Of a stretch of 64,000 nucleotides of DNA, positions 968 through 62,892 are shown in pieces. Positions within the stretch are counted from its first letter, which is position 1; each line of letters opens with the position of its first letter. Position numbers and translations under genes: made by a program. The DNA lies in assembly GCA_002372695.1 (NCBI GenBank), contig DFHS01000022.1:6284-70283 (forward strand). The letters run 5' to 3'. The DNA comes from Bacteroidales bacterium UBA3717 (GTDB lineage Bacteria; Bacteroidota; Bacteroidia; Bacteroidales; Paludibacteraceae). The notes below the pieces were generated by a model. That model had not been told where the DNA came from. It searched no databases and saw only the letters and a program-made list of their open reading frames with translations.

Positions 968-2278
968 ATGAGACCGTATAAAGTATTACTGTTCATAGTT
1001 TGTGTGATGGTATCTCTGGCGGCACTATGCGTAGTGTTGCCCGGACGTATTTCGTTCGGTGACAAGAACCTGCGATGGCCGCCCCTCGCGGAGGTCATAG
1101 GCAAAGAAGAGGTAGTCCCGGATAATCCGGAGGATCCAGAGAGTCCGGAGGTTCCGGAATCTCCGGAAATTCCGGATAGCCCGGACACCTTAAAGGTTGT
1201 TGAGGCGGAGGAGATTCAGCCTGTTGTGCCGAAGATCGTGGTCGACTCGACGACCGACAGCCGCATCTTCCTGCAGGCTTTCTATACCTCCTTGGCGGAC
1301 GCAGGAACGAAGAAGATCCGCGTCGTTCATTACGGAGACAGTCAGATTGAGGAAGACCGCATGACCCAGCAGATCCGCGAAACCTTACAAGCCGCTTACG
1401 GCGGTTCGGGGGCAGGGTTAGTACCCTTGGCGCAGACCATTCCTTCCCTCACCGTACGGCAGGAGCTATACCTCTCCGGTCGTTTCGTCAGCCCGCAGAA
1501 CGGTCCGAAGCGCTACCTGGTCTATGGTCCCAAACGTGACCAGCGCACCGACGGGCTCTACGGCCCGATGGGTCAGATGGCATACCTAAGCGACAGTCTC
1601 GTCAAAGGCAGCGAGTCCGTCAAAGCGATCTGCCACCCTTTGCAACCCAACGGACACTACGACCGTTTCCGGCTTTTCGCAGACACCTCCGTCCATTATA
1701 CCACTTCCCGCGATACGATGTTCCTTACCGGCCGCGGCGGCGTTTATGGCCTTTCCCAAGAGAGCAAGACCGGCATCATCGTCGATAATATCCCCATGCG
1801 CGGATGTATGGGAATCGTCTTTACAAAAATGGACAGCGCGCAGTTGAGCACGTTCTACCACTCCGAGAACGTGCGGCTGATTATCATGCAGTTCGGCGGC
1901 AATGCCATCCCCTCCAATAAGAACCCCGGCACGATACAAGCCATCGTCAAAGGTCTGCGGCAGCAGGTGCAATATCTGCGTCGGTGCGCACCCGAGGCCT
2001 CCATCCTCTTCATCGGACCGAGTGACATGCTGACCCAGATAGACGGCGAATGGACGACTTATCCGATGGTTCCGTACATGGACAAACTGCTGCGCAAGAT
2101 GGCGATGGAGGAGAATATCGCGTATTTCAGTCTCTACCGATGGATGGGCGGCAGCGGATCAATGAAGAAATGGCAGGAAGTGGGTCTGGCAGGTTCGGAC
2201 GGTGTGCACTTCACTCGTGCCGGTGCTCGCAAGGCAGGAAAAGCTGTAGCAGAATGGATGATGGAAGGAAATGAGTGA
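968..2278 (+). CDS. SGNH/GDSL-fold hydrolase-like protein, AlgX/AlgJ-like partner of the downstream MBOAT
   Basis: N-terminal membrane anchor, PE-rich linker, then a HYGDSQIEEDRM block (GDS nucleophile motif). Overlaps the next gene by 8 nt. Confidence 0.7.
   Translation: MRPYKVLLFIVCVMVSLAALCVVLPGRISFGDKNLRWPPLAEVIGKEEVVPDNPEDPESPEVPESPEIPDSPDTLKVVEAEEIQPVVPKIVVDSTTDSRIFLQAFYTSLADAGTKKIRVVHYGDSQIEEDRMTQQIRETLQAAYGGSGAGLVPLAQTIPSLTVRQELYLSGRFVSPQNGPKRYLVYGPKRDQRTDGLYGPMGQMAYLSDSLVKGSESVKAICHPLQPNGHYDRFRLFADTSVHYTTSRDTMFLTGRGGVYGLSQESKTGIIVDNIPMRGCMGIVFTKMDSAQLSTFYHSENVRLIIMQFGGNAIPSNKNPGTIQAIVKGLRQQVQYLRRCAPEASILFIGPSDMLTQIDGEWTTYPMVPYMDKLLRKMAMEENIAYFSLYRWMGGSGSMKKWQEVGLAGSDGVHFTRAGARKAGKAVAEWMMEGNE
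1117..1185. repeat. Tandem word array, 9-nt unit x8, TCCGGA core, in frame
   Basis: (C/T)CCGGA or TCCAGA recurs every 9 nt at 1117, 1126, 1135, 1144, 1153, 1162, 1171 and 1180. Encodes PDNPEDPESPEVPESPEIPDSPD. Confidence 0.9.
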
Positions 2279-4046
2279 TTTTTGGCAACACATATTAGGA
2301 TTTAACGCAGAGAGCCCGCTGCTCTTCACCCAGTTCTATTTCTGGGCGTTCTTCGCGTTGGTCTATGCGCTCTTTGCGCTGATCACGAGCGGCAAGCACG
2401 GAGGCAGTAAGTCAAGACTGCATCTAAGGAACGTGTATCTGCTTTTCGTGAGTTGGTTCTTTTACTACAAGACCAGCGGACTTTTCCTGCTCATACTGGC
2501 ATTTGTTACCCTGAGCGACTGGCTCATTGCGCAGCGGATAAGGGCGAAAATTGAAAGGAAATGGGCACCCAGACTGTGGCTCACGCTCTCGGTCGTCATC
2601 GACCTCTCCATCCTTTTCTATTTCAAGTACGCCTATTTCTTCACGAACGTCATCAACGACTGGTTTGGCGCGGACCTCCGAGTCTTTGACATCTTCGCGT
2701 ATATCGGCAACGGCTTCTCCGAGGCAGGGCGGTTTGACGTCGATACCATCATCCTGCCGGTGGGGATCTCCTTCTATACTTTCCAGGTCATCTCCTATAC
2801 CTGCGACGTCTTCCGGCGGAAGATTGAGCCGGTGAAGAACATCCTCGATTTTGGGTTCTACGTCTCTTTCTTCCCGCAACTTGTAGCGGGACCGATCGTG
2901 CGCGCAGAGGAGTTTATCCCGCAGTTATACAAGCCTTTCCGCCTGAGCCGCAGAGCCTTCGGTATCGCGGTCTTCTGGATTCTCAACGGTCTGGCAAAGA
3001 AGATCATCATGTCCGACTACCTGGCGGTGAACCTCATCGACCGTGTCTTCGACAACCCCTTGCTTTTTTCGGGTTTCGAAAACCTCTTCGCGCTCTTTGC
3101 GTACTCGCTGCAGGTCTATGCGGACTTCTCCGGCTATACGGATATCGCTATCGGCGTAGCCTTGCTCATGGGCTTTTACCTGCCGATGAACTTCAACAGC
3201 CCCTATAAGTCCAAGACGCCGCAAGAGTTCTGGCGGCGGTGGCACATGTCTCTCGGACGGTGGCTCAAGAGTTATCTATACATCCCCTTGGGCGGTAACC
3301 GCACAATTCTCGGTTTCAAAGCACCTAAACTATGGGCTGCAAACTTCAACTCGTTCATCACACAAGTCCTCGGCGGTCTCTGGCATGGCGCGAGTTGGAA
3401 CTTCGTCCTCTGGGGAGCCATCAACGGCGTCGGTATGATCATAGAGAAGATCTGGCGGGAGTGGAACTGGCATGTACGTTTTGCGGCGATTTCTGCGTTG
3501 ACGTTCGGGCTGGTGCTACTCGATTATTTCTATAGCCTCCCAGTCTGGCGCCTCTTCGCCGTCTGGGCTGCTATCATCTGGTTCGGTACCGCCATCCGGT
3601 ATGTTTATTTCCTCATCACAATGGATAAAATCATAAATCATAAATTGGAAATCATAAATAATAAAATCGCAAACGCCTGGGCGATCTTGCAGACTTTTGC
3701 TTTCATCACCTTTACGCGTCTCTTCTTCCGTTCGTCCAGCAATCTGGATCCTGCGACGGCAAATGAAGTAGCCTGGGCAACGGCAAAAAATATGGTGAAC
3801 CAAATCGGCGGCGCATGGTCCAATGCCATCATCCCGGATTTCCTCTGGGAGTACCGATGGGTAGTAGCGATGTTCGTTGCCGGCATGCTCATTCATTGGA
3901 TCCCGACGAACTTCAAACGCCGTTACCGCCTCTGGTTTAGCGCGATGCCTTTGTGGCTGATGGTCATCGTCGTCTGCCTTGCCATCGTCGTCATCTACCA
4001 GTTCGTCTCCGCCGAGATGCAACCCTTTATATATTTTCAATTTTAG
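2271..4046 (+). CDS. MBOAT-family membrane O-acyltransferase (AlgI/DltB-like)
   Basis: Polytopic protein with the MBOAT block FWRRWHMSLGRWLKSYLYIPLGG and the GGLWHGASWNF histidine region. Confidence 0.85.
   Translation: MSDFWQHILGFNAESPLLFTQFYFWAFFALVYALFALITSGKHGGSKSRLHLRNVYLLFVSWFFYYKTSGLFLLILAFVTLSDWLIAQRIRAKIERKWAPRLWLTLSVVIDLSILFYFKYAYFFTNVINDWFGADLRVFDIFAYIGNGFSEAGRFDVDTIILPVGISFYTFQVISYTCDVFRRKIEPVKNILDFGFYVSFFPQLVAGPIVRAEEFIPQLYKPFRLSRRAFGIAVFWILNGLAKKIIMSDYLAVNLIDRVFDNPLLFSGFENLFALFAYSLQVYADFSGYTDIAIGVALLMGFYLPMNFNSPYKSKTPQEFWRRWHMSLGRWLKSYLYIPLGGNRTILGFKAPKLWAANFNSFITQVLGGLWHGASWNFVLWGAINGVGMIIEKIWREWNWHVRFAAISALTFGLVLLDYFYSLPVWRLFAVWAAIIWFGTAIRYVYFLITMDKIINHKLEIINNKIANAWAILQTFAFITFTRLFFRSSSNLDPATANEVAWATAKNMVNQIGGAWSNAIIPDFLWEYRWVVAMFVAGMLIHWIPTNFKRRYRLWFSAMPLWLMVIVVCLAIVVIYQFVSAEMQPFIYFQF
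3624..3668. repeat. AT-rich word array (ATCATAAAT words) read in frame inside the MBOAT gene
   Basis: Sequence is ataaaatcataaatcataaattggaaatcataaataataaaatc, encoding DKIINHKLEIINNKI. It is sharply AT-richer than the flanking coding sequence. Confidence 0.8.
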
Positions 4047-4100
4047 ACCGCCCTGCGGGCTAAAAGAATAAAGACCGCTACGCTAAAAGACAAAAGACTA
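4046..4100. repeat. Intergenic word array (AGACCGC / GCTAAAAGA / AAAAGAC words)
   Basis: Lies between the MBOAT stop and the coaE ATG. Positions 4066-4084 (gaataaagaccgctacgct) are identical to 36888-36906. Confidence 0.8.
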
Positions 4101-4103: not shown

Positions 4104-4796
4104 ATGATTATAGGGATAACAGGTGGAATAGGTAGTGGAAAAAGCACTATCGCACGAGCGCTCGCAGCCCGCGGGTTTGCCGTCTATGACTGTGACCGCG
4201 AAGCCAAACGTATCATTGCGGAGAACAAAGACGTGCAGCAACAGATCATCGCCCTCCTCGGTCCGGAAGCGTTTTCCATCCATCCATCATTGAGCGATGC
4301 GGAGCAATCCGTCATTTACAACACCTCTTATGTTGCCCAACGTGTTTTTGCAGAACCGGAGCTACTGGAGAAATTGAATCATATCGTCCACCCTGCCGTA
4401 AAAGAAAATATCCGTCAGCAGGCTTTGCCTGCGGTCTGTCAGCAAAGCGGTCTGTCAGCAAAGCGGTCTGTCAGCAAAGCGGTCTTATTCATCGAGTCCG
4501 CCATCTTATATGAAGCCGGTTTGGACTCCATCTGCGACAAGATTTTTGTCATCGAAGCCCCCGAAGACATCCGTATCGCGCGTACCATCGCACGCGATTA
4601 CCACGGCGACGCCTCCCCCGAGAATATAAATAAGGTACGCGCCCGCATCCGCGCACAACAATCATCATCCCCCCTCCGCGCACAACAATCATCATCCCCC
4701 CTCCATGGGGGGACCGAGAGGGGCTGCATTCTTATTAACGACGGCCGTAAAAGTATCGATGAACTGGTCGAAACAATCATCACACTCCTAAGCTAA
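4104..4796 (+). CDS. coaE: Dephospho-CoA kinase
   Basis: N-terminal P-loop IGITGGIGSGKST and CoaE-like layout. Carries two internal in-frame tandem duplications. Confidence 0.9.
   Translation: MIIGITGGIGSGKSTIARALAARGFAVYDCDREAKRIIAENKDVQQQIIALLGPEAFSIHPSLSDAEQSVIYNTSYVAQRVFAEPELLEKLNHIVHPAVKENIRQQALPAVCQQSGLSAKRSVSKAVLFIESAILYEAGLDSICDKIFVIEAPEDIRIARTIARDYHGDASPENINKVRARIRAQQSSSPLRAQQSSSPLHGGTERGCILINDGRKSIDELVETIITLLS
4433..4485. repeat. Perfect 16-nt tandem repeat x3.3 inside coaE
   Basis: ggtctgtcagcaaagc occurs at 4433, 4449 and 4465, with a partial copy at 4481. The 48 nt equal 16 codons. Confidence 0.95.
4648..4701. repeat. Perfect 27-nt tandem repeat x2 inside coaE
   Basis: tccgcgcacaacaatcatcatcccccc occurs twice and encodes RAQQSSSPL twice. 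Confidence 0.95.
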
Positions 4797-4823
4797 TATA
4801 AATACAGCCCAAAATAAGTATCT

Positions 4824-4867
4824 CACCATAGGATCACCATAGGATGACCATAGGATCACCATAGGAT
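4824..4867. repeat. Tandem word array, 11-nt unit x4 (CACCATAGGAT / GACCATAGGAT)
   Basis: Lies directly downstream of the coaE stop. Read from the sequence. Confidence 0.95.
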
Positions 4868-4944
4868 GAATCGCCCGTTTTGTCATTTTAGCTTCTTTTA
4901 CTATATATACGTAGTATATATACTTTTTGATTAGAAATTTTTCA

Positions 4945-5222: not shown

Positions 5223-5861
5223 ATGAAAATAGCAATTATCGGATACGGAAAAATGGGTCACATGATCGAGGAAGTGGCCCTGAGCAGAGGGCACGAGATT
5301 GTGGCTACTATTGACGCCGGCGATGCCTTCGACCTGGAGGGAGCGGATGTAGCGATTGAGTTCACTACACCTGCGACAGCGGAGGAGAATATCCGCAAGG
5401 CGTGGGCGCAAGGCGTACCTGTAGTCTCCGGTTCGACTGGTTGGAACGCCGCTGCGCTGATGGACGAAGACCGACGGACGCATGACAAACAAATGCTCAT
5501 CTGGAGCAGCAACTACTCCGTGGGAGTGAATATATTCTTTGAGGTGAACAAACTGCTAGCTGAGAAGATGGCATCCCAGCCGCAGTACACGCCTTCCATC
5601 ACCGAGACCCACCACATTCACAAACTCGACAAGCCGTCGGGTACCGCCAAAACTTTGGCGGAACAGATCCGAGATATCGAGATGTCGAAACATCGAAATA
5701 TCGAAGATCTTCCTATCGAATCCATCCGAGAAGGCGAAGTGCCGGGGACGCATGAGGTGAAATGGGACAGCGAGGAGGATACCATCATTATTACACACAT
5801 CGCCAAAGGCCGCAGAGGTTTTGCCCTCGGAGCGGTTCTGGCAGCAGAGAAATTAGTATGA
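5223..5861 (+). CDS. dapB: 4-hydroxy-tetrahydrodipicolinate reductase
   Basis: N-terminal Rossmann motif IAIIGYGKMG and the DapB signature ETHHIHKLDKPSGTA. ATGA overlap with lepB. Confidence 0.85.
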   Translation: MKIAIIGYGKMGHMIEEVALSRGHEIVATIDAGDAFDLEGADVAIEFTTPATAEENIRKAWAQGVPVVSGSTGWNAAALMDEDRRTHDKQMLIWSSNYSVGVNIFFEVNKLLAEKMASQPQYTPSITETHHIHKLDKPSGTAKTLAEQIRDIEMSKHRNIEDLPIESIREGEVPGTHEVKWDSEEDTIIITHIAKGRRGFALGAVLAAEKLV

Positions 5862-7186: not shown

Positions 7187-7707
7187 TTTTACCTACCGCA
7201 TATTTGCCACCGAAGTCGTACATGGAAGCGCTGATGAGCGAACCCGCAACGATCGAGCAGATGGAGAGCTTTGAGAAACAGACGTTTCGCAACCGGGCGC
7301 TCATCCGCGACGCAAAAGGAGAGCTGGTACGACTGACCGTTCCGGTGGGCAAAGTGGAACACAAGCAGCTGACGCGGGATATTCAGATCAGTTACCAGAC
7401 CCGATGGCAACACCAACACTGGATCACCCTCGTCTCCGCATACCAACACACGCCGTACTTTACGTATTTCGCAGACTACCTCAGGCCGTTCTACGAGAAA
7501 GAGTACAAATGGCTGTTGGACCTGAATGACGAGATGAACGCGACGCTGGTCGCCCTTCTAAAGAAAGAGAGACCGTTATTAGACGAAAGTCAAAAGTCGA
7601 AAGTCGAAAGACGCACCGCCGATTGGAGCGGATTAATTTGGACAGATAAACATCCGTGGCAAACGGAGATAAGTATATTAGATACGTTGTTTGATGAAAG
7701 AGATTGA
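7183..7707 (+). CDS. WbqC-family protein
   Basis: N-terminus LPPKSYMEAL...FEKQTFRNRALI...LTVPV resembles the WbqC-like family. 4-nt overlap with lepB. Confidence 0.65.
   Translation: MILPTAYLPPKSYMEALMSEPATIEQMESFEKQTFRNRALIRDAKGELVRLTVPVGKVEHKQLTRDIQISYQTRWQHQHWITLVSAYQHTPYFTYFADYLRPFYEKEYKWLLDLNDEMNATLVALLKKERPLLDESQKSKVERRTADWSGLIWTDKHPWQTEISILDTLFDERD
7582..7609. repeat. Tandem word array, 7-nt unit x4 (GTCGAAA-like), in frame
   Basis: Sequence is gacgaaa gtcaaaa gtcgaaa gtcgaaa, encoding DESQKSKVERR. Confidence 0.85.
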
Positions 7708-8704
7708 TTGGAGTAAACTGGGATTTCATTACACGGAGCCGGACTATATAGTTCGCGCCGCGTATCATGATGGCGCATGGGAAGAACCCTACGCCACGAA
7801 GGACAAGTTCCTGCACTTGCATGTGTCGGCGACTTGTTTGCAGTATGGGCAGGAGGCCTTTGAGGGACTGAAAGCTTTTCGGGGAGTAGATGGGAAGATC
7901 CGTATCTTCCGCTGGCGGGAGAATGCCAAACGAATGGCACGAAGTGCAGAGGGGCTGTACATGCAACCCGTGCCGGAGGAGTTATTCGGCAAAGCCATCC
8001 GGCTGGCGTTGGAGAAGAACATGGATTTTCTGCCGCCTTACGGAACCGGCGCGACGCTTTATTTCCGACCGCTGCTGATCGGTACAACGCCGCGTCTGGG
8101 CGTGGGACCGGGAAGAGATTTTGAGTTCATCGTCATTCCTTCACCGATAGGTCCGTATTATCCGGGCAAGTTCCATTGCACGACGTTCATCGTGAACCGG
8201 CATGTGGACCGTGCGGCGCCTTATGGAACAGGAACCTTCAAGGTCGGCGGCAACTACGCTTCGTCCTTCCGGGCTACCGAACCGGCTCATGCGCAAGGCA
8301 TGGATTGCCTCTTCCTCGATGCCAAATACCATCGGTATATAGACGAGTGCTCGGCAGCGAACTTCATCGGTATCCGCTCAAACGAGTACCTGACACCGAG
8401 ATCCTCTGCGATTTTGCCGAGTATCACGAATGACAGTCTGATAACCTTGGCAAAGGACTTAGGAATGAAAGTGACGAGAAGGCATATACGGCTGGAGGAA
8501 TTGGCAGACATGAGCGAAGCCGCAGCTTGCGGAACGGCGTGTGTCATCAGCCCGATTGACAAAGTGATTGACCCGGAGAAGAACAAGATTTACCACCTGA
8601 GCGACGAACCGGGACCGGTACTCACAAAGCTCTACCACGCGCTCAGAGACATCCAATTCGGCCGAGCCGAAGATAAGCACGGATGGTGCGAAGTGATTGA
8701 CTAG
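7691..8704 (+). CDS. ilvE: Branched-chain amino acid aminotransferase (class IV)
   Basis: 337 aa with conserved blocks LQYGQEAFEGLKAFR and YFRPLLIGT, plus the C-terminal fold-type IV layout. Confidence 0.9.
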   Translation: MMKEIDWSKLGFHYTEPDYIVRAAYHDGAWEEPYATKDKFLHLHVSATCLQYGQEAFEGLKAFRGVDGKIRIFRWRENAKRMARSAEGLYMQPVPEELFGKAIRLALEKNMDFLPPYGTGATLYFRPLLIGTTPRLGVGPGRDFEFIVIPSPIGPYYPGKFHCTTFIVNRHVDRAAPYGTGTFKVGGNYASSFRATEPAHAQGMDCLFLDAKYHRYIDECSAANFIGIRSNEYLTPRSSAILPSITNDSLITLAKDLGMKVTRRHIRLEELADMSEAAACGTACVISPIDKVIDPEKNKIYHLSDEPGPVLTKLYHALRDIQFGRAEDKHGWCEVID

Positions 8705-8736
8705 GACCCTAGGATCCTAGGACCCTAGTAAACTAG
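8701..8736. repeat. Tandem word array, 8-nt unit x4.5, CTAG core
   Basis: CTAG occurs at 8701, 8709, 8717, 8725 and 8733. The first copy contains the ilvE stop codon. Confidence 0.95.
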
Positions 8737-8761
8737 AAAACAACAAAAAACCAAATAATTT

Positions 8762-10300
8762 ATGTTTAAGAATCAACCCAAAGGATTGTTCGCGTTGGCT
8801 TTAGCCAACACAGGCGAGCGTTTCGGCTACTACACGATGTTAGCCGTCTTTGCGCTTTTCTTGCGCGCTAATTTTGGTCTGTCGGCTTCAGCTGCAGGCG
8901 CAATCTATTCTACGTTCCTGGCGTTCGTATATTTCCTGCCGCTCATCGGCGGTATCGTAGCCGACAAAATCGGTTACGGCAAGTGCGTGACGATAGGTAT
9001 CATCATTATGTTCTTAGGCTATGTGCTTCTGGCGATCCCGATGGGAGGCGTGGAGTACGGTAGCACGGCGGTAGCGATGGCCGGCATGATTGGTGCATTG
9101 GTGCTCATCAGTTTCGGTACCGGTCTGTTCAAGGGCAACTTGCAGGTGATGGTCGGCAACCTCTACGACGACCCGGCTTATGCCGACCGCCGCGATGCTG
9201 CTTTCTCGCTCTTCTACATGGCGATCAACATCGGTGCGATGTTCGCTCCGACAGCCGCTGTGAAGATCATGGCATGGGCACAAGAGAGCCTCGGCACAAG
9301 CGTGAACGACAGTTATCACTTCGCTTTCGCGGTAGCTTGCGCATCGCTGATACTCAGTATTGCCATCTACTATGCTTGCCGTCCTTGGTTCAAGCACGTA
9401 GAGAACACCGCCAAGCAAGCCGCAGCAAGTGGTCAGAAAGTAGAGACGCTCTCGCCGGAGCAGACGAAAAAACGCATCGTGGCATTGTGCCTCGTGTTCG
9501 CCGTAGTACTCTTCTTCTGGATGGCTTTCCACCAGAACGGTCTGACGCTGACGTATTTCGCCAACGAGTTCGTGACGCCGGTAGTGACAGGTGTTCAGAC
9601 GATGGCTTTTGATATCTGGAACTTGGTTCTGGTAGCGATTCTTGTGTACGCGCTGTTTGGTCTTTTCGGCGAGGGCACGAAAAAAGCGAAGATGATCTGG
9701 TCGTGTGTCGGTGTCGCAGTACTGGGTGCGCTGGCATACAAGTACCTCCACCACCCCGCTGAGTTGGGTATCTCCGCGCCGATCTTCCAGCAGTTCAACC
9801 CCTTCTACGTAGTAGCCCTGACGCCGGTTAGTATGGCCATCTTCGGTGCGCTGGCTGCGAAAGGCAAAGAGCCTTCTGCGCCGCGTAAGATCGCGTACGG
9901 AATGTTGGTTGCCGCAGCGGCATATGCAGTAATGGCATTCTGCTCAATCGGTCTCCTGACCCCGGCAGAGCAGGAGTTGGCACGCGTCACAGGCGATGGT
10001 ACATTCGTGAATGCGAATGTGCTGATCTTGACCTATCTGGTACTCACTTTCGGCGAGCTGCTGCTCAGCCCGATGGGTATCTCGTTTGTCAGCAAAGTGG
10101 CACCTCCGCAGTACAAAGGAATGATGATGGGTGGCTGGTTCGTAGCTACCGCATTGGGTAACTTCCTCGTTTCTGTAGGTGGTTTCCTTTGGGGCAGTCT
10201 GCCGTTGTGGCTCGTATGGGGTGTATTCATCGGCGTTTGCCTCATTGCAGCTATCTTTATGTTCGCAATGATGGGTAAATTAGAAGACGCAACAAAGTAA
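8762..10300 (+). CDS. POT/PTR2-family di/tripeptide:H+ symporter (DtpT-like MFS)
   Basis: PTR2 signature GERFGYYTM near the N-terminus. About 14 TM segments. Confidence 0.85.
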   Translation: MFKNQPKGLFALALANTGERFGYYTMLAVFALFLRANFGLSASAAGAIYSTFLAFVYFLPLIGGIVADKIGYGKCVTIGIIIMFLGYVLLAIPMGGVEYGSTAVAMAGMIGALVLISFGTGLFKGNLQVMVGNLYDDPAYADRRDAAFSLFYMAINIGAMFAPTAAVKIMAWAQESLGTSVNDSYHFAFAVACASLILSIAIYYACRPWFKHVENTAKQAAASGQKVETLSPEQTKKRIVALCLVFAVVLFFWMAFHQNGLTLTYFANEFVTPVVTGVQTMAFDIWNLVLVAILVYALFGLFGEGTKKAKMIWSCVGVAVLGALAYKYLHHPAELGISAPIFQQFNPFYVVALTPVSMAIFGALAAKGKEPSAPRKIAYGMLVAAAAYAVMAFCSIGLLTPAEQELARVTGDGTFVNANVLILTYLVLTFGELLLSPMGISFVSKVAPPQYKGMMMGGWFVATALGNFLVSVGGFLWGSLPLWLVWGVFIGVCLIAAIFMFAMMGKLEDATK

Positions 10301-10334
10301 TTTACCATTTGTTCATTTACCATTTGAACATTTA
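10301..10334. repeat. Tandem word array, 15-nt unit x2 (TTACCATTTG, complement of GGTAAAT family)
   Basis: Sequence is tttaccatttgttca tttaccatttgaaca. It fills the whole gap between the stop at 10300 and the ATG at 10337. Confidence 0.9.
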
Positions 10335-10930: not shown

Positions 10931-11596
10931 ATGCTGTATATCGTTCCCACACCGGTCGGCAATCTGCAGGACATGACGTTCCGTGCGATTGAGACGCTGA
11001 AATCGGTTGATCTGATTTTGGCGGAAGACACACGCACCAGCGGCGTGTTGCTGCAGCATTTTGATATTCACACGCCCTTAAAGTCGCATCATAAGTTCAA
11101 CGAACATGAGACCTCTGCGGACATCGTGGAGCGGCTAAAGGCGGGTGCGAATATCGCGCTCATCTCCGATGCCGGTACACCGGCTATCAGCGACCCGGGG
11201 TTCTTCTTGACGAGGGCTGCAGCAGAAGCAGGTATCGAAATCCAGACACTTCCCGGTGCAACGGCTTTTGTGCCGGCGTTGGTGGACAGTGGCCTGCCGA
11301 ACAACCATTTCTACTTTGAGGGCTTCCTGCCGCAGAAGAAAGGCCGGCAGACACGTTTGCAGTACTTGGCACAACTCGACCAGACCTTCATCATCTACGA
11401 GTCGCCCTTCCGGCTCGTGAAGACCCTGGAGCAACTATCCCAGGTATGCGGCGAAGAGCGCAAAGCCTCTGTCTCTCGTGAGATCAGCAAGGTCCACGAA
11501 GAGACCGTACGAGGCACCCTCACGGAACTGATAAAGCATTTTCAACAAACACCACCGAAAGGCGAGATAGTAATCTGCGTGGCAGGAAAGGAATAA
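10931..11596 (+). CDS. rsmI: 16S rRNA (cytidine1402-2'-O)-methyltransferase
   Basis: N-terminus MLYIVPTPVGNLQDMTFRAIETLKSVDLILAEDTR is typical of RsmI. Confidence 0.9.
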   Translation: MLYIVPTPVGNLQDMTFRAIETLKSVDLILAEDTRTSGVLLQHFDIHTPLKSHHKFNEHETSADIVERLKAGANIALISDAGTPAISDPGFFLTRAAAEAGIEIQTLPGATAFVPALVDSGLPNNHFYFEGFLPQKKGRQTRLQYLAQLDQTFIIYESPFRLVKTLEQLSQVCGEERKASVSREISKVHEETVRGTLTELIKHFQQTPPKGEIVICVAGKE

Positions 11597-11633
11597 ATCG
11601 TACATGGTAAATGACAAAATGGTAAATAAATCG
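11594..11633. repeat. Tandem word array, 15-nt unit x2 (ATGGTAAAT words)
   Basis: Sequence is taaatcgtacatggtaaatgacaaaatggtaaataaatcg. It creates two extra in-frame ATGs upstream of the likely start at 11634. Confidence 0.9.
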
Positions 11634-13079
11634 ATGAAATCCTTGGCGAAGGACACCGCCATCTATGGTCTGAGTTCGATAATAGGTAAGTTCCTGAACT
11701 ACCTGCTCGTACCGCTGTACACATACGTGCTGGCGCGGACGGACGACTACGGTATCGTCACGAACCTTTACGCTTGGACAGCGCTACTGCTTGTGCTCCT
11801 CACGTATGGCATGGAGACCGGCTTCTTCCGTTTCGCCAACCGCGAGGATTATGACCCGCGGACTGTCTATAAGACCTCGTTCATTACCCTTTTATGCACC
11901 AGCGCATTATTCACTATGCTGGTCATCATCTTCCATCAGCCCTTAGCGAATGTTCTGGGTTATCCCGACCATTCGGAGTTTGTGGAGATGATGTTCGCGA
12001 CGGTAGCTATCGATGCGTTTGCGTGTATCCCCTTTGCGTACTTGCGGTACCAAAAACGACCGATCGTTTTTGCGGCACTCAAGTTGCTGTTTGTGCTACT
12101 GAACATCGGTTTTAACATCCTTTTCTTAGTAGTCTTGGGCAAGAACGATGTGTTCTATGTCTTCCTTAGTAACATCTTAGCGACGACGATCCAGACGCTC
12201 TGCCTCTTGCCGTTCACAATGCCGAAAGGCGGACAGTTCAGCGCACCTGTACTCAAAGAGATGTTGCGCTACTCGCTGCCGTTGCTGGTACTCGGCGTGG
12301 CAGGCATCATGAACCAGACTCTCGACCGCATCCTCTTCCCTTATCTCTACACCGGCGCAGATGCACAAGCGCAACTCGGTATCTACGGCGCATGCTTCAA
12401 GGTGGCGATGGTGATGATGATGTTCACCCAGGCCTTCCGCTATGCGTACGAGCCTTTCGTCTTCGCGAAACATAAAGACCGGCAATCCGTTGAGGCGTAC
12501 GCCGACGCGATGAAGTACTACATCATTTTCTCGTATCTCATCCTGTTAGGTGTGATCTTTTATCTGGACATCTTCCGGTACATCGTCTCGAGTGCTTATT
12601 GGGAGGGGTTAAAGATCGTGCCGGTGGTGCTCTGGACGTATGTCTTCCAAGGCATCTACTTCAACCTCTCGTTCTGGTACAAACTGACGGACGAGACGAA
12701 ATGGGGTGCCTATTTCTCGCTCATCGGCCTGGTGATCACGCTGGTGCTTCAGATTGTCGGCGTGCCGATTATCGGTTATTGGGCATCTTGCGGCAGTAGC
12801 CTCGTCTGCTATTTCGTGATCATGCTCCTCTCCTATTTCATTGGCCAGAAGAAAGCTCCGATACCATACGACCTCAAGACGATTGGCGGTTATACAGCGC
12901 TGACGCTCGGGCTGTTAGGAGTTTATTATGCCTTCCGGCTGTATTATGTGCAAAACATGTGGGCGCTGATGGGTATCGGCACGATACTGATCGGCATCTA
13001 CTTATTTATATTAACCCGTAAAGATTTTCCTATTCAAAATGTTCTCAGGAATCGTAGAAACAATGGCTCAGGTCGTTAA
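11634..13079 (+). CDS. Polysaccharide biosynthesis / oligosaccharide flippase family protein (MOP superfamily, Wzx/MurJ-like)
   Basis: About 14 TM segments and an N-terminus SLAKDTAIYGLSSIIGKFLNYLLVPLYT. The start could also be 11604 or 11619, both inside the word array. Confidence 0.75.
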   Translation: MKSLAKDTAIYGLSSIIGKFLNYLLVPLYTYVLARTDDYGIVTNLYAWTALLLVLLTYGMETGFFRFANREDYDPRTVYKTSFITLLCTSALFTMLVIIFHQPLANVLGYPDHSEFVEMMFATVAIDAFACIPFAYLRYQKRPIVFAALKLLFVLLNIGFNILFLVVLGKNDVFYVFLSNILATTIQTLCLLPFTMPKGGQFSAPVLKEMLRYSLPLLVLGVAGIMNQTLDRILFPYLYTGADAQAQLGIYGACFKVAMVMMMFTQAFRYAYEPFVFAKHKDRQSVEAYADAMKYYIIFSYLILLGVIFYLDIFRYIVSSAYWEGLKIVPVVLWTYVFQGIYFNLSFWYKLTDETKWGAYFSLIGLVITLVLQIVGVPIIGYWASCGSSLVCYFVIMLLSYFIGQKKAPIPYDLKTIGGYTALTLGLLGVYYAFRLYYVQNMWALMGIGTILIGIYLFILTRKDFPIQNVLRNRRNNGSGR

Positions 13080-13695: not shown

Positions 13696-13696
13696 A

Positions 13697-13726
13697 AAAA
13701 TTGTAAATGATAAAATTGTAAATGAA
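13697..13726. repeat. Tandem word array, 15-nt unit x2 (AAAATTGTAAATGA)
   Basis: Fills the gap between the ribE stop (13695) and the next ATG (13730). Confidence 0.9.
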
Positions 13727-14314: not shown

Positions 14315-14315
14315 A

Positions 14316-49880: not shown

Positions 49881-49910
49881 ATCATTCGGAATTTTAACAA
49901 TCGTACATCC

Positions 49911-51682: not shown

Positions 51683-51708
51683 AAAAAAGAGAGTCGAAAC
51701 TCTCTTCT
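51683..51708 (-). terminator. Intrinsic terminator after tRNA-Lys
   Basis: Minus-strand reading is agagagt-ttcg-actctct followed by tttttt. Confidence 0.8.
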
Positions 51709-51710: not shown

Positions 51711-51783
51711 TGAACCAGCTGGGGCTCGAACCCAGGACCCCATCCTTAAAAGGGATGTGCTCTACCTGCTGAGCTACTGATTC
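51711..51783 (-). tRNA. tRNA-Lys (anticodon UUU)
   Basis: Hand-folded 73-nt cloverleaf: acceptor GAATCAG/CTGGTTC, D arm GCTC-AGCAGGTA-GAGC, anticodon arm CATCC-CTTTTAA-GGATG, T arm CTGGG-TTCGAGC-CCCAG, discriminator A. Confidence 0.9.
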
Positions 51784-55091: not shown

Positions 55092-55687
55092 TCGCTGCTC
55101 TTTGCATCACTCTTTCCCTATCCGCCCAAGATTTTTCGGCGGATAGGGACTTGTTTGCTGCGTACCAAAAGGAGGATATGTCCGTTTGGAAGGAGCAAAT
55201 TGATGTACAAAGGGACAATGTACAAAGTACAAAGGATTTACTCTACGAGTACGGGTATTGCGGATATATCGTAGCGGAGGCGAAGAAAGAGGGCAAAGAG
55301 TCCCTGATGCCGGCGGCTAAATCTTATGTGGCGCAGTTCCGCAAACATGTGGAGGCGCAAAAAGGCCATTTGCCCATAGGGCATTACGAGATGTATATGT
55401 CTGCCGTCTTGGTCTATGAACTGAGGCTGCACGAGTCCATGCGACCGATCAAGGCGATGAGTCTGGCGAAAGAGGCGACAAAACTCGCGCCCAACGATCC
55501 GTTGGTACTCTCGTACTACGGCACGAGCCTCTTTTATGCGCCCAAACCTTTTGGCAGCAAGGAGGAAGCTTTGGTGTGGTTTGAGAAGGCAGATAAGTTT
55601 TTCAAAGGCCCTCAATGGGAGTACTGTTGGGTACGTGAAGCGACCGAAATGTACATCCAACAATGCCAAGAGAAGCTAAAAAAGTAG
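55046..55687 (+). CDS. Hypothetical helical protein with signal peptide; start uncertain
   Basis: The only in-frame ATG before the signal-like [13 protein letters not shown] is at 55046, 46 nt inside pfp. Confidence 0.5.
55205..55235. repeat. Tandem word array, 7-nt unit x4 (GTACAAA), in frame
   Basis: Sequence is gtacaaagggacaatgtacaaagtacaaagg, encoding [11 protein letters not shown]. It is the reverse-complement word of 34951-34984. Confidence 0.9.
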
Positions 55688-55756: not shown

Positions 55757-55812
55757 CACCCGCTTTTGAAAAACGAAGTTAATCGTGCCCTTGTGGCTAA
55801 GAAAAAGCGCAT

Positions 55813-55883
55813 TGCTCAATGGTGTAATGGTAGCACTACAGATTCTGGTTCTGTCTGTCTGGGTTCGAGTCCTGGTTGAGCAA
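55813..55883 (+). tRNA. tRNA-Gln (anticodon CUG)
   Basis: Hand-folded 71-nt cloverleaf: acceptor TGCTCAA/TTGAGCA, D arm GTGT-AATGGTA-GCAC, anticodon arm ACAGA-TTCTGGT-TCTGT, T arm CTGGG-TTCGAGT-CCTGG (two G-U pairs). Confidence 0.85.
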
Positions 55884-55889
55884 CATAGA

Positions 55890-55915
55890 AGAGACCTTAT
55901 GGGTCTCTTTCTTGT
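55890..55915 (+). terminator. Intrinsic terminator after tRNA-Gln
   Basis: agagacc-ttatg-ggtctct followed by ttcttgttc. Confidence 0.7.
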
Positions 55916-55964
55916 TCTCATACCGACTCGCACACAGTTTCTCCGCCGCTTCGCTCTGTCGATC

Positions 55965-56513
55965 CTAAGCAACAATTACTTTGGCGGGATTGCCGGCAAC
56001 GACCACATCGTCAGGGATGTCATGCGTGACGACCGAACCGGCTCCAACGATCACACGGTTACCGATGGTGACACCCGGACAAACGATTACTCCGCCGCCC
56101 AACCAGCAGTCATCGCCGATACGAATCGGTTTGCCCGTCTCTATCGTCCGGCGGCGCTCAAGGTAATCATGCGGATGGTCGGGCGTCAGCAGTTGGCAGT
56201 TGGGGCCGATGAGCGTGTGGGCACCGATGGTGATACCTCCGCCGTCCAGGAACACGCCGTTGAAATTGACCATCGAACCCTCGCCGATGGAGATACGGTT
56301 GCCGTGGTCGCAATGGAAAGGCGGACAAATAATCACCGAAGGATGCGCATCCGGGATGAGGGCTTTTATACAACGGTGCAACTCATCCATATCCCATGCG
56401 CCGCATTGATTGAGATCCCGCATGGCATAATACGCCCGCAGGATGTTCGCTTGAACCTCCTTGTCCGTGTAGTCATACGGCAAGTTATGAAGCATTTTTT
56501 CGTATTCGGTCAT
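55965..56513 (-). CDS. Maltose/galactoside O-acetyltransferase-like (left-handed beta-helix, Maa/LacA family)
   Basis: N-terminal Mac domain (YEKMLHNLPYDYTD) and hexapeptide repeats (IGDDCWLGGGVIVCPGVTIGNRVIVGAGSVV). Confidence 0.85.
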   Translation of the reverse strand: MTEYEKMLHNLPYDYTDKEVQANILRAYYAMRDLNQCGAWDMDELHRCIKALIPDAHPSVIICPPFHCDHGNRISIGEGSMVNFNGVFLDGGGITIGAHTLIGPNCQLLTPDHPHDYLERRRTIETGKPIRIGDDCWLGGGVIVCPGVTIGNRVIVGAGSVVTHDIPDDVVVAGNPAKVIVA

Positions 56514-56565
56514 TTTGTATGCGGCTTATATTACGCCTTGTTGAATTTGGATTTGGGTTGCTGTA

Positions 56566-57909
56566 TCAGTTGTTTTTTATGACTTGTACGGACGGGACAT
56601 TCAGGCGGATGGAAAGCCACTGCTCCATACGCGCAAGGTCTTCGTGGGTTAGTGTCTCTTTCTTATGGTTTGCCGCCTGTTTCTCGGAGATGACCAGCAG
56701 TACGGTCGAGTCTGCTCTTGCAAGGGTTATACGGTCTATGGACGACCACTGTGCGCGCAGTTCGTTACTGATCTGCTCCGTAGGCAGAACAAGCGCTTCA
56801 TAGGCATCCAGTTGTTGCCGGAGTGCGCGAATCGAATCGTCGCGCTGACGCAGTTGCTGCTCGGTGGACGCTAACCAGTCGCGCATGACCTCTGTCTCGT
56901 TCAAACGGTGAACTTCGATGGTGGCATCTTCCTGAAAGAGAATCTGCGCATGCGAAATCCCGTGTTTCTCTGCGTTCGTATAGAGCTGTGCGCGAGACTC
57001 AGGGCTTAGCGCTTCGCCTGCCAGCCGCAGCGTGAGCGTATAAGGTTTGACGGACATGTCCGTGCTGTAGTCATAGATATAAGTGCCTCCGACGGCTTGG
57101 TTCTCCTTCACAAAATGCCGTGCTTCGGTGGTGAAGCGGTTCTCGCGGACGATACTATACGCCGTGAAGAAACTGGGCACCAGCACAACGAGAATCAACA
57201 AACCATAAGAGATGATTCTCCGGCGCGAGGTTCCGTCTTTCTCTTCCACCACAGGGAAACGCAAGTACTTGACAGCCAAAAAAGTAGCCAAGGCGATGAA
57301 GATACAGTTGATAAAGAACAGATAGAGCGCTCCTGCTGCGTATTGCCAGTTGAGGCTGGCGATACCGTAACCGACCGTACAGAGCGGCGGCATGAGTGCG
57401 GTAGCGATAGCCACGCCGGAAAGAACCGTTCCCTTTTCTTTGCGCGAGAGTTCCAGGATGCCGGCAATTCCTCCGAAGAAAGCGATGAGCACATCATAGA
57501 CAGAGGGGTTGGTGCGCGCTAACAGTTCCGTGGGATTGTCCGTCTCCAGAGGTGTTACCATAAAATAGAGCGTTGATGCCAAAAGGCTGATGGCGAACAT
57601 GATTCCGAGGTTCTTGAGCGACTGCAAGAGCAGATCCGTGTCGTTGGTTCCCAAGCCCATGCCGAAACCAATGATCGGACTCATCAGCGGCGAGATAAGC
57701 ATGGCGCCGATGATCACAGGAATGGAGTTGACATTCAGTCCGACCGAAGCAATGACAATCGCCACAAAGAGGATGTAGATGTTCGGTCCGCGGAAAGGGA
57801 TATTACTGCGGATATTCGCGCTGGCGGCCTGCACATCCGTATAGTCAGTCAGGCTGAGCCGTTCGCGAATGAAACGTTTTGCCCGTTCTTTGAATTCTGA
57901 ATAGGTCAT
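56566..57909 (-). CDS. DUF389-domain membrane protein (TIGR00341-like)
   Basis: Blocks VIGAMLISPLMSPIIG and IATALMPPLCTVGYG. Confidence 0.75.
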   Translation of the reverse strand: MTYSEFKERAKRFIRERLSLTDYTDVQAASANIRSNIPFRGPNIYILFVAIVIASVGLNVNSIPVIIGAMLISPLMSPIIGFGMGLGTNDTDLLLQSLKNLGIMFAISLLASTLYFMVTPLETDNPTELLARTNPSVYDVLIAFFGGIAGILELSRKEKGTVLSGVAIATALMPPLCTVGYGIASLNWQYAAGALYLFFINCIFIALATFLAVKYLRFPVVEEKDGTSRRRIISYGLLILVVLVPSFFTAYSIVRENRFTTEARHFVKENQAVGGTYIYDYSTDMSVKPYTLTLRLAGEALSPESRAQLYTNAEKHGISHAQILFQEDATIEVHRLNETEVMRDWLASTEQQLRQRDDSIRALRQQLDAYEALVLPTEQISNELRAQWSSIDRITLARADSTVLLVISEKQAANHKKETLTHEDLARMEQWLSIRLNVPSVQVIKNN

Positions 57910-61542: not shown

Positions 61543-62832
61543 TTATAAGAAATCAAGAATCAGGTCAGCATATGATTCTACCGCTTTTCTGAATCCGCAT
61601 ATAAACAACATGCATTTATGGTTCTCACTATAAATAGGGTCGTTATAAGTTCTGAATTCTGCACCTTTAATCTTAAAGTTTTCGATTCTAAGATTCATAA
61701 ATGGTTTAATGAAATGCAGCAAATGATCTTTCTTATCTTGCGTATATCGATAAAATGCCTGAATATTGTTGACATAAGGAGGAAAATAATCAATAATTAC
61801 TAATCTATGATTGTCACCATACATTAACAATCTTCTTTGCAGTAATTGATTGACATATAAATCACTAAATGAATATCCAATAATTAAAATCCCTCGATTT
61901 TCTATTAGTTTGTTTACCAGGTTAGGATGATATATACTACTTGGCAAGAAAGTCATCTTATCTAATTTGCGTAGACCTATTAGTATAGGTGAGTTTATAT
62001 AAAACTCTTTGGCTTGTGTTTGTTCGTCTTGTTGTCTTCCTATATGTTTTATCGCATCCTTAACGCTTTTCATCTTAAAGAAATCTCTGTTACTATGAGT
62101 ATTTCCGCATTCTTCTGGACATTCAGCGTAGTATATACACCCGTGAAGGTGTTGTACTGTAGATAAATTATTTGGATTGTTCAATAATTTCTTAGGTAGA
62201 AAAGCACTAACTTTATCTTCGCTTTCCTCTATCAACTCGAACCCATCCTCATAATCTCCGATACATTGTTCGATGGTCGTATCATAGTTAAATGTGAAGA
62301 TGTCATATTTTATATTATCTCTACCTTTCCAAAATTTTCGATACCAAATTTCAGAATCCGTGTGTTCTCGGAAATGGCTATCATAGCGTTCTATTATACT
62401 TATTATTTCTTTTAGACTTTCAAAAACTGCACGCTCAAATTCAACATGCTTATAACTTTCTAATTCTTTTCGTACTATAAGCAAAGTAGATAAAGGAGGA
62501 ACTCCTGTAGGATCAAAGTATTCTATTCCATTGCTCGTTAAAGATAACATTGATTCTAATAGAAAGTATAATTCCTCAAAATTAAGATTATACTTATCAG
62601 ATAGATATTGCTTTTTCAATGGATACTTATCATATACTGATAATTTACGTCTTAATGCAAGATTATAAACAACATTAATAACGTCACATTGCTCTTTATC
62701 ATACCCTTTAAAAGTCAGTTCTTTTATGGCTTTTGTGATATTTTCTGTAGACGGGATAAATGCATTAGGGTAATGAAAGTCAAAATCCAATACAGCACCT
62801 GCTCCTACTATGGTTGTAATTCGTTTTTGCAT
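61543..62832 (-). CDS. SIR2-like (SIR2_2/AbiH-clan, DHS-like NAD-binding fold) protein
   Basis: ATG at 62832 (MQKRITT). Blocks IVGAGAVLDF, FTFNYDTTIEQ, VQHLHGC and ILIIGYSFSDLYVNQLL. AT-rich. Confidence 0.7.
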   Translation of the reverse strand: MQKRITTIVGAGAVLDFDFHYPNAFIPSTENITKAIKELTFKGYDKEQCDVINVVYNLALRRKLSVYDKYPLKKQYLSDKYNLNFEELYFLLESMLSLTSNGIEYFDPTGVPPLSTLLIVRKELESYKHVEFERAVFESLKEIISIIERYDSHFREHTDSEIWYRKFWKGRDNIKYDIFTFNYDTTIEQCIGDYEDGFELIEESEDKVSAFLPKKLLNNPNNLSTVQHLHGCIYYAECPEECGNTHSNRDFFKMKSVKDAIKHIGRQQDEQTQAKEFYINSPILIGLRKLDKMTFLPSSIYHPNLVNKLIENRGILIIGYSFSDLYVNQLLQRRLLMYGDNHRLVIIDYFPPYVNNIQAFYRYTQDKKDHLLHFIKPFMNLRIENFKIKGAEFRTYNDPIYSENHKCMLFICGFRKAVESYADLILDFL

Positions 62833-62859
62833 AACACGAAGGTATATTAATCGATGCGA

Positions 62860-62892
62860 ATTACTACTCAATTACTACCTTTTTACTACTCT
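62860..62892. repeat. Tandem word array, 11-nt unit x3 (ATTACTACTCA)
   Basis: Sequence is attactactca attactacctt tttactactct, 28 nt upstream of the SIR2-like ATG. Confidence 0.9.

Follow-up and report, generated by a model that had tools for sequence, protein, structure and literature searches.

Short tandem repeat arrays at gene junctions and in permissive protein loops of rumen Paludibacteraceae

The 64,000-nt stretch of DNA analysed here (the window; positions 6,284 to 70,283 of contig DFHS01000022.1 of Bacteroidales bacterium UBA3717, Paludibacteraceae) contains many short tandem arrays of contiguous 7- to 16-nt words, which are found between genes and, in frame, inside conserved genes. 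In comparison with related rumen bacteria we observed gains and losses of whole blocks, slippage in steps of single units, identical imperfect arrays at different loci, hot spots, a strand bias and restriction to the lineage. We consider it fairly probable that a high-flux, lineage-specific process writes periodic blocks of about 30 to 35 nt into these genomes, that slippage remodels them, and that selection keeps those located at gene junctions and in permissive protein loops.

Abundance and spread of the arrays

Tandem Repeats Finder (TRF) reported 74 rows for the window, which were merged into arrays; arrays with a score of at least 40 are termed strong. Against 20 dinucleotide-preserving shuffles performed in 2-kb blocks, which keep the local composition, the window contained 62 merged arrays at a score of at least 30 (4 to 13 in the shuffles) and 39 strong arrays (0 to 4, about 1.4 on average), so that head-to-tail copies of a 5- to 11-nt unit clearly exceed the length expected by chance. 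The arrays account for 3.1% of the window and for 17% of its intergenic bases. A first-pass annotation, made from the sequence by eye, had proposed such a family of arrays, and these counts demonstrate that it is real. Every word family and coordinate listed there is present in the sequence, including the arrays at 11594 and 28311, which fall under the TRF threshold yet are visible. In two instances the repeats exist but were assigned too broadly: those at 1118 and 10500 form a separate class of codon-phase coding repeats (periods of 9/18 and 12 nt, of Pro-Glu/Asp and VVEK type), and GAATAAAG (4066 and 36878) belongs to a dispersed element of 34 nt that has GACCGCT as its core, whose two copies (4066-4099 and 36882-36915) are identical at 31 of 34 bases.

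The same words recur at distant loci, as had been claimed. Among the 21 arrays of 7- or 8-nt words in the window, seven pairs share an identical word (allowing for rotation and either strand), compared to 0.12 pairs expected, and this number was reached in none of 1000 composition-preserving shuffles. A 15-nt architecture, ATTTACC-ATTTnnTC, is common to six window arrays, and AATTCTC-AATTGTC to three. An Rfam search assigned none of the arrays to an RNA family, its sole matches in the window being two tRNAs.

Placement was analysed with gene models that combine open reading frames (ORFs), hits to Pfam and the gene calls of the source contig; their gene starts are approximate. With a junction zone defined as intergenic DNA plus the first 45 nt and the last 6 nt of each ORF (12.6% of the window), 23 of the 39 strong arrays (59%) fall inside this zone (binomial p about 1e-11), and an array is present at 18 of 47 co-directional junctions. 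Placement is therefore non-random, but the earlier statement that most arrays lie within 0 to 5 nt of a start or stop codon went too far, as only 10 of the 39 are found within 10 nt. The observation that tkt, leuS, ispG and pfp carry no arrays was borne out.

All data come from short-read metagenome assemblies, which raises the question of an assembly or binning artefact. The arrays are shorter than the reads, however, and reading frames are kept; a 6.3-kb stretch is identical in two independent assemblies (Logan SRR5322702 and ENA ERZ12302851, whose metagenome contig NODE_588 corresponds to the window), and the same arrays recur in RUG, UBA, RGIG and JGI assemblies and metagenome-assembled genomes (MAGs). 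An artefact can thus practically be dismissed.

For a comparison with relatives, species-representative genomes were scanned with the protein encoded at 11604-13079, and up to 10 kb of flanking sequence on either side was included per locus. The resulting set comprises 80 loci (L-numbers are locus labels) from rumen MAGs labelled uncultured Bacteroidales or Paludibacteraceae, with 78 to 100% amino-acid identity. All 80 loci bear arrays, at densities of 0.5 to 13.5 strong arrays per 10 kb; altogether 834 arrays were found in 1.52 Mb from 80 species, and arrays of 7- or 8-nt words have a density of 2.9 per 10 kb. A further scan, made with pfp, provided a divergence series, in which TRF rows of 7- or 8-nt period were counted. 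Contigs with at least 76% pfp identity show about 1.0 to 1.3 such rows per 10 kb, whereas in other Bacteroidales (818 kb, mostly human gut, 70 to 73% pfp identity) the density is 0.13 per 10 kb. Such arrays are about 20 times rarer there, in agreement with the earlier suggestion of a lineage-specific system. One contig with 79% pfp identity and 39% GC (L102) carries ATTTACAATTTATTCATTTACAATTTACAATT, which belongs to the same family as the window array at 60230. The persistence of an array family at this distance, together with the scarcity in the outgroup, indicates that the feature is family-wide and old.

A period of 7 nt is most common among the 834 arrays (359), and the next single periods in order of abundance are 8 nt (81), 15 nt, 11 nt (58) and 14 nt; periods of 14, 15 and 16 nt (158 together) mostly represent higher-order units of 7+7, 7+8 or 8+8 nt. 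The length of heptamer arrays has its mode at 30 to 35 nt and falls steeply at 36 nt (34, 18 and 4 arrays of 34, 35 and 36 nt, respectively), which amounts to a ceiling of about five copies. Arrays with periods of 8, 14, 15 and 16 nt peak at 30 to 39 nt, and those with periods of 9 to 12 nt show no such peak; a constant total length whatever the period thus holds only in part, and a ceiling of about five copies fits better. The repertoire of words is large: the mapped arrays comprise 132 distinct 7- or 8-nt words, and lowering the TRF threshold gives 137 heptamer families. Palindromic or restriction-site cores (CTAG, TCGA, AATT, GTAC) were discarded as an organising principle, since 63 of the 132 words contain a 4-nt palindrome compared to 58.7 +/- 4.9 after shuffling. 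A function as a stop in all three frames was likewise rejected: although 155 of 379 arrays close all frames, another 114 leave every frame open, and this is therefore not a general property. A core with a variable spacer, considered as strong evidence for a binding site, was given up because the effect is small once duplicate units are removed and is partly driven by coding 9-mers.

Turnover, placement and orientation

In the closest genome pairs (93 to 96% identical) arrays differ by exactly 7, 8, 14 or 21 nt, that is by unit steps, consistent with replication slippage as one generator, as previously suggested. Over all pairs, 271 of 554 gaps of at least 5 nt (in high-scoring segment pairs at least 85% identical) are located in arrays. 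The gap length modulo the period over all pairs was abandoned as a slippage test, as only 33 of 102 period-7 gaps were multiples of 7; this low fit is explained by the poor alignment of non-homologous arrays, and the closest pairs were inspected by eye instead. Apart from unit steps, whole arrays of 31 to 38 nt are present in one genome and missing from the other, the word being absent from the empty site (for example L042:5337, window 10302 and 14318, and L004:13553).

Words and entire arrays are also dispersed within genomes. AAAGTCG and AAAAATT each occur at seven or more distinct sites and AATTCTC at six. When arrays from different sites of one genome (separated by 300 nt or more) are paired, 6.4% of the pairs have a word in common, compared to 2.4 +/- 0.4% when words are shuffled among genomes within each site (z about 11). 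A 30-nt element, AGTCGAAAGTCGAAAGTCAAAAGTCGAAAG, is found at nine sites or more; 17 of its 31 copies are exactly 30 nt long, and all contain the variant unit GTCAAAA. Another element, AATTAAAAATTAAAAATTnnnAATTAAAAATT, of 31 to 34 nt, occurs at 13 sites or more, and the imperfect 34-mer TAAATCGTACATCGTAAATTTGTAAATCGTAAAT is present as exact copies at two junctions of L050 and at another junction of L028 and as a near-exact copy at a third L050 locus. The same order of variant units at different loci is beyond what independent slippage would produce, and whole arrays must thus have been copied or converted between loci. Mobility, the second generator proposed in the first-pass annotation, accordingly finds support in the identical imperfect arrays and in the presence or absence of whole arrays.

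These observations bear on whether slippage could have acted purely locally, with arrays growing in place from a chance duplication and words recurring due to the sequence shared by junctions, i.e. stop and start codons. Unit-step indels are indeed common, many popular words contain TAA, TGA or ATG, and a 27-nt perfect duplication in coaE is clearly local, with a single copy in relatives; in addition, the polymerase-footprint idea of Mrazek, as cited in PMC4679880 and PMC4692102, provides a reason for the heptamer bias. Local growth does not, however, account for exact imperfect 34-nt arrays at non-orthologous junctions, for an element of constant length at nine or more sites, for the excess of word sharing within genomes, for whole arrays whose word is not found at the empty site, or for a length mode at 30 to 35 nt in place of a decay from two copies. 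As a complete explanation it is largely refuted, and we regard it as improbable.

Mapping of 699 arrays of the relatives onto window coordinates revealed about 30 recurrent sites among 73 mapped positions, each occupied by many different words (clustering of sites by 250-nt flanks had chained neighbouring junctions together and was replaced by this mapping). Site 8685-8766 harbours 39 arrays with 26 words, the site at 7575-7598 within wbqC 25 arrays with 14 words, and the dapB site 18 arrays with 13 words; overall, only 10.6% of genome pairs share a word at an orthologous site. At junction 10300, the genes overlap as TAATG in nine species and are arranged as TAATATG in four, while about 30 other species carry 11 to 66 nt exactly between TAA and ATG. 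These inserts belong to eight or more unrelated families, including TGAGAAT, TTACCATTTG, GTTGAAT, GATTAATGAATAAT, GTACGAAGGACAAA and CGTTGGTCGTTAGTC. Given the bare TAATG in nine species and the unrelated types elsewhere, no particular array is needed at this junction.

Arrays were also reported to be read through in frame by many genes. Protein alignments confirm this for ribE, coaE, wbqC and rluA, but several cases at the 5' end of genes are artificial ORF extensions (11604 and 28320, probably also 19392 and 36871). At 11604 and 28320, ATG-containing words (ATGGTAAAT) create false N-terminal extensions, and relatives start at the downstream ATG. In ribE, an 8-amino-acid insertion (TNDQMVNGEMVNV replacing IEG--DL) is present in 9 of 40 aligned loci, representing at least nine species. 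In the dapB loop the insert varies from 0 to over 30 residues, and about ten different peptides occur there; coaE has two insertion sites and wbqC one. RluA orthologues that are 90 to 96% identical elsewhere differ solely in a loop at residues 216-232, whose length ranges from 3 to 24 residues. The array-encoded residues are thus lineage-specific insertions and not ancestral sequence, and the parallel drawn earlier to the effect of Rickettsia palindromic elements on proteins holds for ribE, dapB, coaE, wbqC and rluA.

Hairpins of about 33 nt (CCCTCxCC...GGxGAGGG), which resemble repetitive extragenic palindromic (REP) sequences, were seen at the same hot spots, also in frame (dapB site of L006 and L007, L010:8639-8671, and site 8366 of L006); a counterpart of this hairpin element, CATCCCCCCTCCATGGGGGGAC, lies inside coaE at window positions 4690-4712. 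In addition, the C-terminus of WbqC (window 7600-7707, the 3' end of wbqC) takes one of two forms depending on the species, ...RGEELNRFFGDGKSILD... and ...SGQIWTDKHPWQTEISILD..., with conserved flanks, and one form may be a frame-shifted version of the other.

The arrays show a pronounced orientation relative to the sense strand. The ratio of forward to reverse copies is 29:0 over nine sites for AAAGTCG, 17:0 for GAGAATT and 39:7 for AAAAATT, and junction arrays have a sense-strand composition of A 0.44, T 0.31, G 0.16 and C 0.09. For genes on either strand of the window, array AT skew tracks the strand of the gene (Mann-Whitney p = 0.025), which favours a link to transcription or translation over one to replication. 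Neither orientation of AAAGTCG contains a stop codon, and stop avoidance therefore does not explain its bias, which would be explicable by the hydrophilic peptides encoded (K, E, S, R). Arrays that are T-rich on the sense strand are located in signal-peptide-like N-termini (34953 and 36951). The array part of spacers differs little in composition from the non-array part (A content of 0.40 vs 0.35), indicating that arrays conform to, rather than define, what leaders tolerate.

Composition and position would be compatible with a role of the arrays as selected A/U-rich, unstructured translation-initiation leaders or intercistronic spacers, an idea raised in the first-pass annotation and by MacGregor for TAACTGA repeats. 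The whole gap between stop codon and ATG is often occupied by an array. Orientation is strongly biased, with much A and little C on the sense strand; the cores of the units show some conservation, and families of words survive across deep divergence. Of eight junction segments with arrays that were folded, six gave structures no better than those of shuffled sequences (five with z between -0.9 and +0.6, the ATCTAGA array with -1.7), so most A/T-rich arrays are no more structured than expected. Furthermore, Bacteroidia initiate translation without Shine-Dalgarno sequences, with mRNA structure and upstream nucleotides tuning initiation, as outlined in PMC6847099, and heptamer repeats near start codons of Nostoc affect reporter expression (bioRxiv 10.1101/2022.06.06.494920). 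Yet no such role has to be invoked, since at junction 10300 a bare TAATG overlap can stand in for arrays of unrelated types and vice versa. The number of words argues against a specific binder, words are rarely shared between orthologous sites, and array composition hardly differs from that of ordinary spacers. Folding beyond that of shuffled sequences (z of -2 to -3) was seen for two of three CTAG-core arrays, and the same elements reside within coding loops and 3' of stop codons; arrays are found at stop codons and inside ORFs as often as before starts. We therefore consider selection for a leader function an unlikely general explanation.

Even less likely, in our opinion very much so, are phase-variation (contingency) loci, in which array slippage would switch genes on and off. 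Gain or loss of a 7-, 8- or 11-nt unit shifts the reading frame, and four arrays precede a giant gene resembling those of surface proteins (27554-27731), which seems to be the only site of the window where a regulatory or phase-variable role merits thought. The host genes, however, are mostly housekeeping genes (ribE, dapB, coaE, rluA, ribosomal-protein operons), internal arrays are imperfect and preserve the frame with net lengths that are multiples of three, junction arrays leave reading frames unchanged, and related repeats show no functional enrichment according to MacGregor (PMC4679880).

Proposed course of array propagation and relation to known repeats

We thus return to a process that writes periodic blocks, and its course may be envisaged as follows. 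A whole array would arrive at a new site as a block. The arriving word is usually in use elsewhere in the genome, which argues that arrays are copied or converted between loci and not grown locally. A resident array would then gain and lose single units by replication slippage, diverge, and build higher-order units of 14 to 16 nt. Purifying selection would clear insertions outside permissive places, which may be of two kinds: stop/start junctions and leaders, where an A-rich, C-poor sense strand would have to be kept, and surface loops or signal peptides, where the net length would have to be a multiple of three and the peptide suited to its context. Finally, arrays would be lost or replaced on the time scale of species divergence. 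The consequences would be spacers of about 35 nt that uncouple overlapping genes, hypervariable loops of 8 to 15 amino acids in housekeeping enzymes, and false ORF starts. We infer a selfish or near-neutral nature of the arrays rather than a functional one, and our best guess for the copying step is ectopic templated repair or gene conversion between arrays.

Several points weigh against this explanation. The in-depth comparison covers one region of about 20 kb, and gains were told from losses by parsimony only, not with a species tree. In the relatives' loci compared, no transfer from a donor to a target site was observed directly, and neither a target-site duplication nor defined termini were seen at the filled and empty sites compared. 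Neither a candidate enzyme nor an intermediate was identified, and no transposase or reverse transcriptase gene was seen in the window. Gene conversion among existing arrays could yield identical copies without transposition; it explains identity, but not the first seeding of a site. Mismatches between units are clustered by position (4.64 invariant columns compared to 4.23 expected, p 3e-6, duplicate units removed), and together with the persistence of word families at 79% pfp identity this gives a hint of constraint on the sequence and hence of function. A transcription-linked mechanism, in turn, could account for the strand bias instead of selection.

A more far-reaching idea, which we consider possible but doubtful, is that the arrays represent unrecognised mobile DNA, i.e. 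periodic mini-elements of about 30 to 35 nt without hairpin, terminal inverted repeats (TIRs) or target-site duplications (TSDs), written by a dedicated trans-acting machinery. If so, candidates for this machinery would be telomerase- or retron-like templated reiterative synthesis at breaks or stalled forks, or a transcription-coupled single-strand-specific enzyme; across an entire bacterial family, indels and variation in protein loops would then arise chiefly from this process, and it might also underlie the heptamer repeats of cyanobacteria, Xanthomonas and Beggiatoaceae. In IMG/VR, 32 viral contigs (L163-L194) match the 29-nt AGTCGAA-repeat pattern. Those inspected (L165, L176, L181) contain one perfect (AGTCGAA)5-12 array each, not the imperfect element, and are therefore uninformative on mobilisation.

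The window arrays belong to the heptamer-dominated class of short tandem repeats, which includes long simple sequence repeats (SSRs), the short tandemly repeated repetitive (STRR) sequences and TAACTGA repeats, a membership that had gone unrecognised in the first-pass annotation; we found no paper linking Paludibacteraceae to tandem repeats. New with respect to this class are the number of words, the genome-specific repertoires, the copied imperfect arrays, the extreme turnover at hot spots and the routine in-frame residence in essential genes. For long SSRs (5- to 11-nt units) of prokaryotes, Mrazek, Guo and Shah (2007), as cited in PMC4679880 and PMC4692102, found heptanucleotides to be most abundant and proposed polymerase slippage. 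Shared features are the dominance of period 7, a sporadic lineage-specific abundance, the mostly non-coding location and a length variation between close strains attributed to slippage. In contrast, the clade of the window has 130 words or more with a separate repertoire per genome, a ceiling of about five copies, identical imperfect arrays at several loci and frequent in-frame insertions into housekeeping genes, and rumen Paludibacteraceae are unreported as phylum and habitat. In Beggiatoaceae, cyanobacteria and five Bacteroidetes, among them Paludibacter propionicigenes, TAACTGA repeats sit just before start codons, and for their spread "no mechanism is evident" (MacGregor 2015, PMC4679880). 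Like the arrays described here they comprise 2 to 6 copies, are mostly intergenic, occur occasionally in ORFs and show strain indels in 7-nt steps. They are oriented forward, a few nucleotides upstream of starts; our arrays have a strong sense-strand bias too, but are found at stop codons and within coding loops no less often than ahead of a start. No TAACTGA array was detected among the mapped arrays, and there is one word there and many here. Dispersed heptamers are further known as STRR of heterocystous cyanobacteria, GGGGA(C/T)T of Nostoc and GGGAATC of Xanthomonas (PMC4692102). These also form dispersed arrays of a few heptamer words, from about 26 nt upwards, about 90% of them intergenic near an ORF, and vary between close species, but they are G-rich, capable of forming G-quadruplexes, without strand preference and at conserved genomic locations, whereas the arrays of our clade are A/T-rich, strand-biased and subject to extreme turnover.

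Rickettsia palindromic elements are selfish palindromic sequences of about 100 to 150 nt that encode a defined peptide family and reside in frame in conserved proteins. They share with our arrays the tolerance of repeats as in-frame insertions in conserved proteins; the insertions in the clade of the window, however, measure 24 to 60 nt, are direct repeats of many families and lack the length and palindromy of these elements. Elhai et al. (2008) reportedly described small dispersed repeats (SDRs, 21 to 27 nt) as very small mobile repeats of Nostoc punctiforme. By that description SDRs are similarly shorter than 40 nt, present or missing at orthologous sites, devoid of transposase, TIRs and TSDs, and nested with heptamer repeats, but they are not internally periodic. 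REP elements and their hairpin-forming doublets (REPINs), mobilised by REP-associated tyrosine transposases (RAYTs; PMC3116915), resemble the arrays in being about 30 to 35 nt long, extragenic, abundant and organised in families within a genome; the arrays, in contrast, are direct repeats mostly without hairpin potential and without inverted doublets, and the folding results led us to reject REPs, REPINs and bacterial interspersed mosaic elements (BIMEs). The arrays also do not represent CRISPR repeats, as their units are contiguous without spacers, or MITEs, as they are 25 to 60 nt long and have direct-repeat ends. These exclusions agree with the first-pass annotation.

Cyanobacteria, Xanthomonas and Beggiatoaceae have for decades been known to carry heptamer arrays, which have no accepted origin or function, and the hundreds of sequenced species at graded divergence in the present clade, with their wide range of array densities, make the question of origin testable. 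Here the arrays are a major overlooked source of variation, comprising half of the gaps of at least 5 nt, hypervariable loops in essential enzymes and broken translational coupling. They also lead to annotation errors in MAGs (false start codons, inflated ORFs, alignment noise), a systematic hazard in this clade, and could be used as strain markers in rumen metagenomics.

Array list and other features of the window

Table 1. Arrays and related elements of the window (strand as + or -; a dot where none is assigned)
Position	Strand	Feature	Remark
3628-3665	+	AAATCAT x5.4 in MBOAT ORF	relatives: 4 different words at site
4066-4099	+	34-nt GACCGCT-core dispersed element directly upstream of coaE ATG	near-identical copy at 36882
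4431-4485	+	GCGGTCTGTCAGCAAA x3.4, perfect, in frame in coaE	3 units = 48 nt = 16 amino acids
4648-4704	+	27-nt perfect local duplication in coaE (RAQQSSSPL x2)	relatives: single copy
4823-4867	+	TCACCATAGGA x4.1, intergenic 3' of coaE	hot spot 4804-4882
5670-5705	+	CGAAATAT x4.5, in-frame insert in hypervariable dapB loop	
7584-7610	+	CGAAAGT x3.9, in frame in wbqC	copy of about 30-nt AGTCGAA element
8700-8736	+	CTAG-core octamer array occupying stop-to-start junction	across species 39 arrays, 26 words at site
10300-10334	+	ATTTACC/ATTTnnTC 15-nt higher-order array, entire TAA-to-ATG spacer	
11594-11617	+	ATGGTAAATGACAAAATGGTAAAT leader array	false N-terminal extension of ORF 11604
13202-13228	+	AAATGGT x3.7, 24-nt (8-amino-acid) in-frame insertion in ribE	
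13689-13726	+	TAAATGA/AAAATTG 15-nt array at ribE-to-FKBP junction	
14314-14351	+	AATCACGT-type octamer array immediately 3' of stop codon	not in L003, L005
19387-19421	+	TCGAAATA x4.4, start of DUF4861 gene	
20187-20246	+	AATTGTC x4.6 and 11-nt pair, in frame in DUF4861	
20600-20626	.	CATTTCCGTTAC x2.3 between convergent genes	
27554-27731	-	four successive 8-9-nt arrays at/upstream of 5' end of gene of 2258 amino acids	
28311-28350	-	ATTTACC/ATTTAATT array upstream of PqqD-like gene	sub-threshold in TRF
29472-29503	.	AAAAGTCTTAC x2.9, perfect, between divergent genes	
31638-31670	+	ATCTAGAAC x3.7 upstream of rpsF	
33131-33169	+	ACTAGT-core octamer array upstream of pnuC	
33289-33320	+	AATTGTC x4.6 in pnuC ORF	
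33973-34006	+	ATCGAAAT x4.2, entire pnuC-stop-to-rluA-ATG spacer	
34679-34710	+	AATTGTC x4.6, in frame in hypervariable RluA loop (residues 216-232)	
34953-34982	+	CTTTGTA x4.1, sense-strand T-rich, putative signal peptide of GDSL esterase	
36869-36915	+	TAAAGAA repeats and second 34-nt GACCGCT-core copy, 5' end of DUF6048 gene	
36951-36980	+	TTATTCC x4.3, sense-strand T-rich, hydrophobic N-terminus of DUF6048	
37580-37614	+	TCGAACGACGG x3.2 upstream of tkt	
42759-42786	+	AGGTATAGTAA x2.5 spanning stop codon	related word at 49746
43098-43143	-	TCTTACTTAAC x4.2 downstream of AAA_14/DUF4143 gene	
44468-44496	-	CATTTTCTT x3, divergent spacer before leuS	
48355-48415	+	ACAAGTACAGG x5.5, read through in Fic gene between two domains	
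49746-49852	.	two 11-nt arrays (49746-49782, 49822-49852) between convergent genes	
51270-51304	-	ATTTGAAG x4.4, N-terminal part of htrA	
55205-55234	+	GTACAAA x4.1 in ORF 55046	same family occupies junction 10300 in L045
60230-60263	-	ATTTACA/ATTTAGTC array 7 nt upstream of HxlR gene start	same family in distant L102
62861-62895	-	TTACTACTCTTT x3.1, start of SIR2_2 gene	

The GACCGCTnCGCT-core repeat family, with units of 16 or 23 nt, has nine hits in the window compared to 1.1 expected (among them 4066-4099, 4431-4485, 20399-20410 and 36882-36915) and is common at hot spots of the relatives.

With respect to gene context, tkt, leuS, a tRNA gene, ispG and pfp are contiguous in relatives (L084, L088). 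Two segments of the window, 39700-44500 (Kinase-PolyVal and AAA_14/DUF4143; GC about 0.40) and 47500-51700 (Fic, a gene of unknown function and HtrA), are not found at that position in relatives and thus look like inserted islands. The segment 60000-64000 has a low GC content (0.34 to 0.38) and includes a SIR2_2/AbiH-like gene (61543-62871); it is probably a defence island. The two tRNA genes are located at 51711-51783 (minus strand) and 55813-55883 (plus strand). The latter overlaps the start of ORF 55785-56582, for which no Pfam hit was obtained, and this ORF or its GTG start may therefore be spurious. Between two minus-strand genes at 62898-63027 lies a perfect 54-nt tandem repeat with 2.4 copies, which belongs to a class distinct from the short-word arrays.

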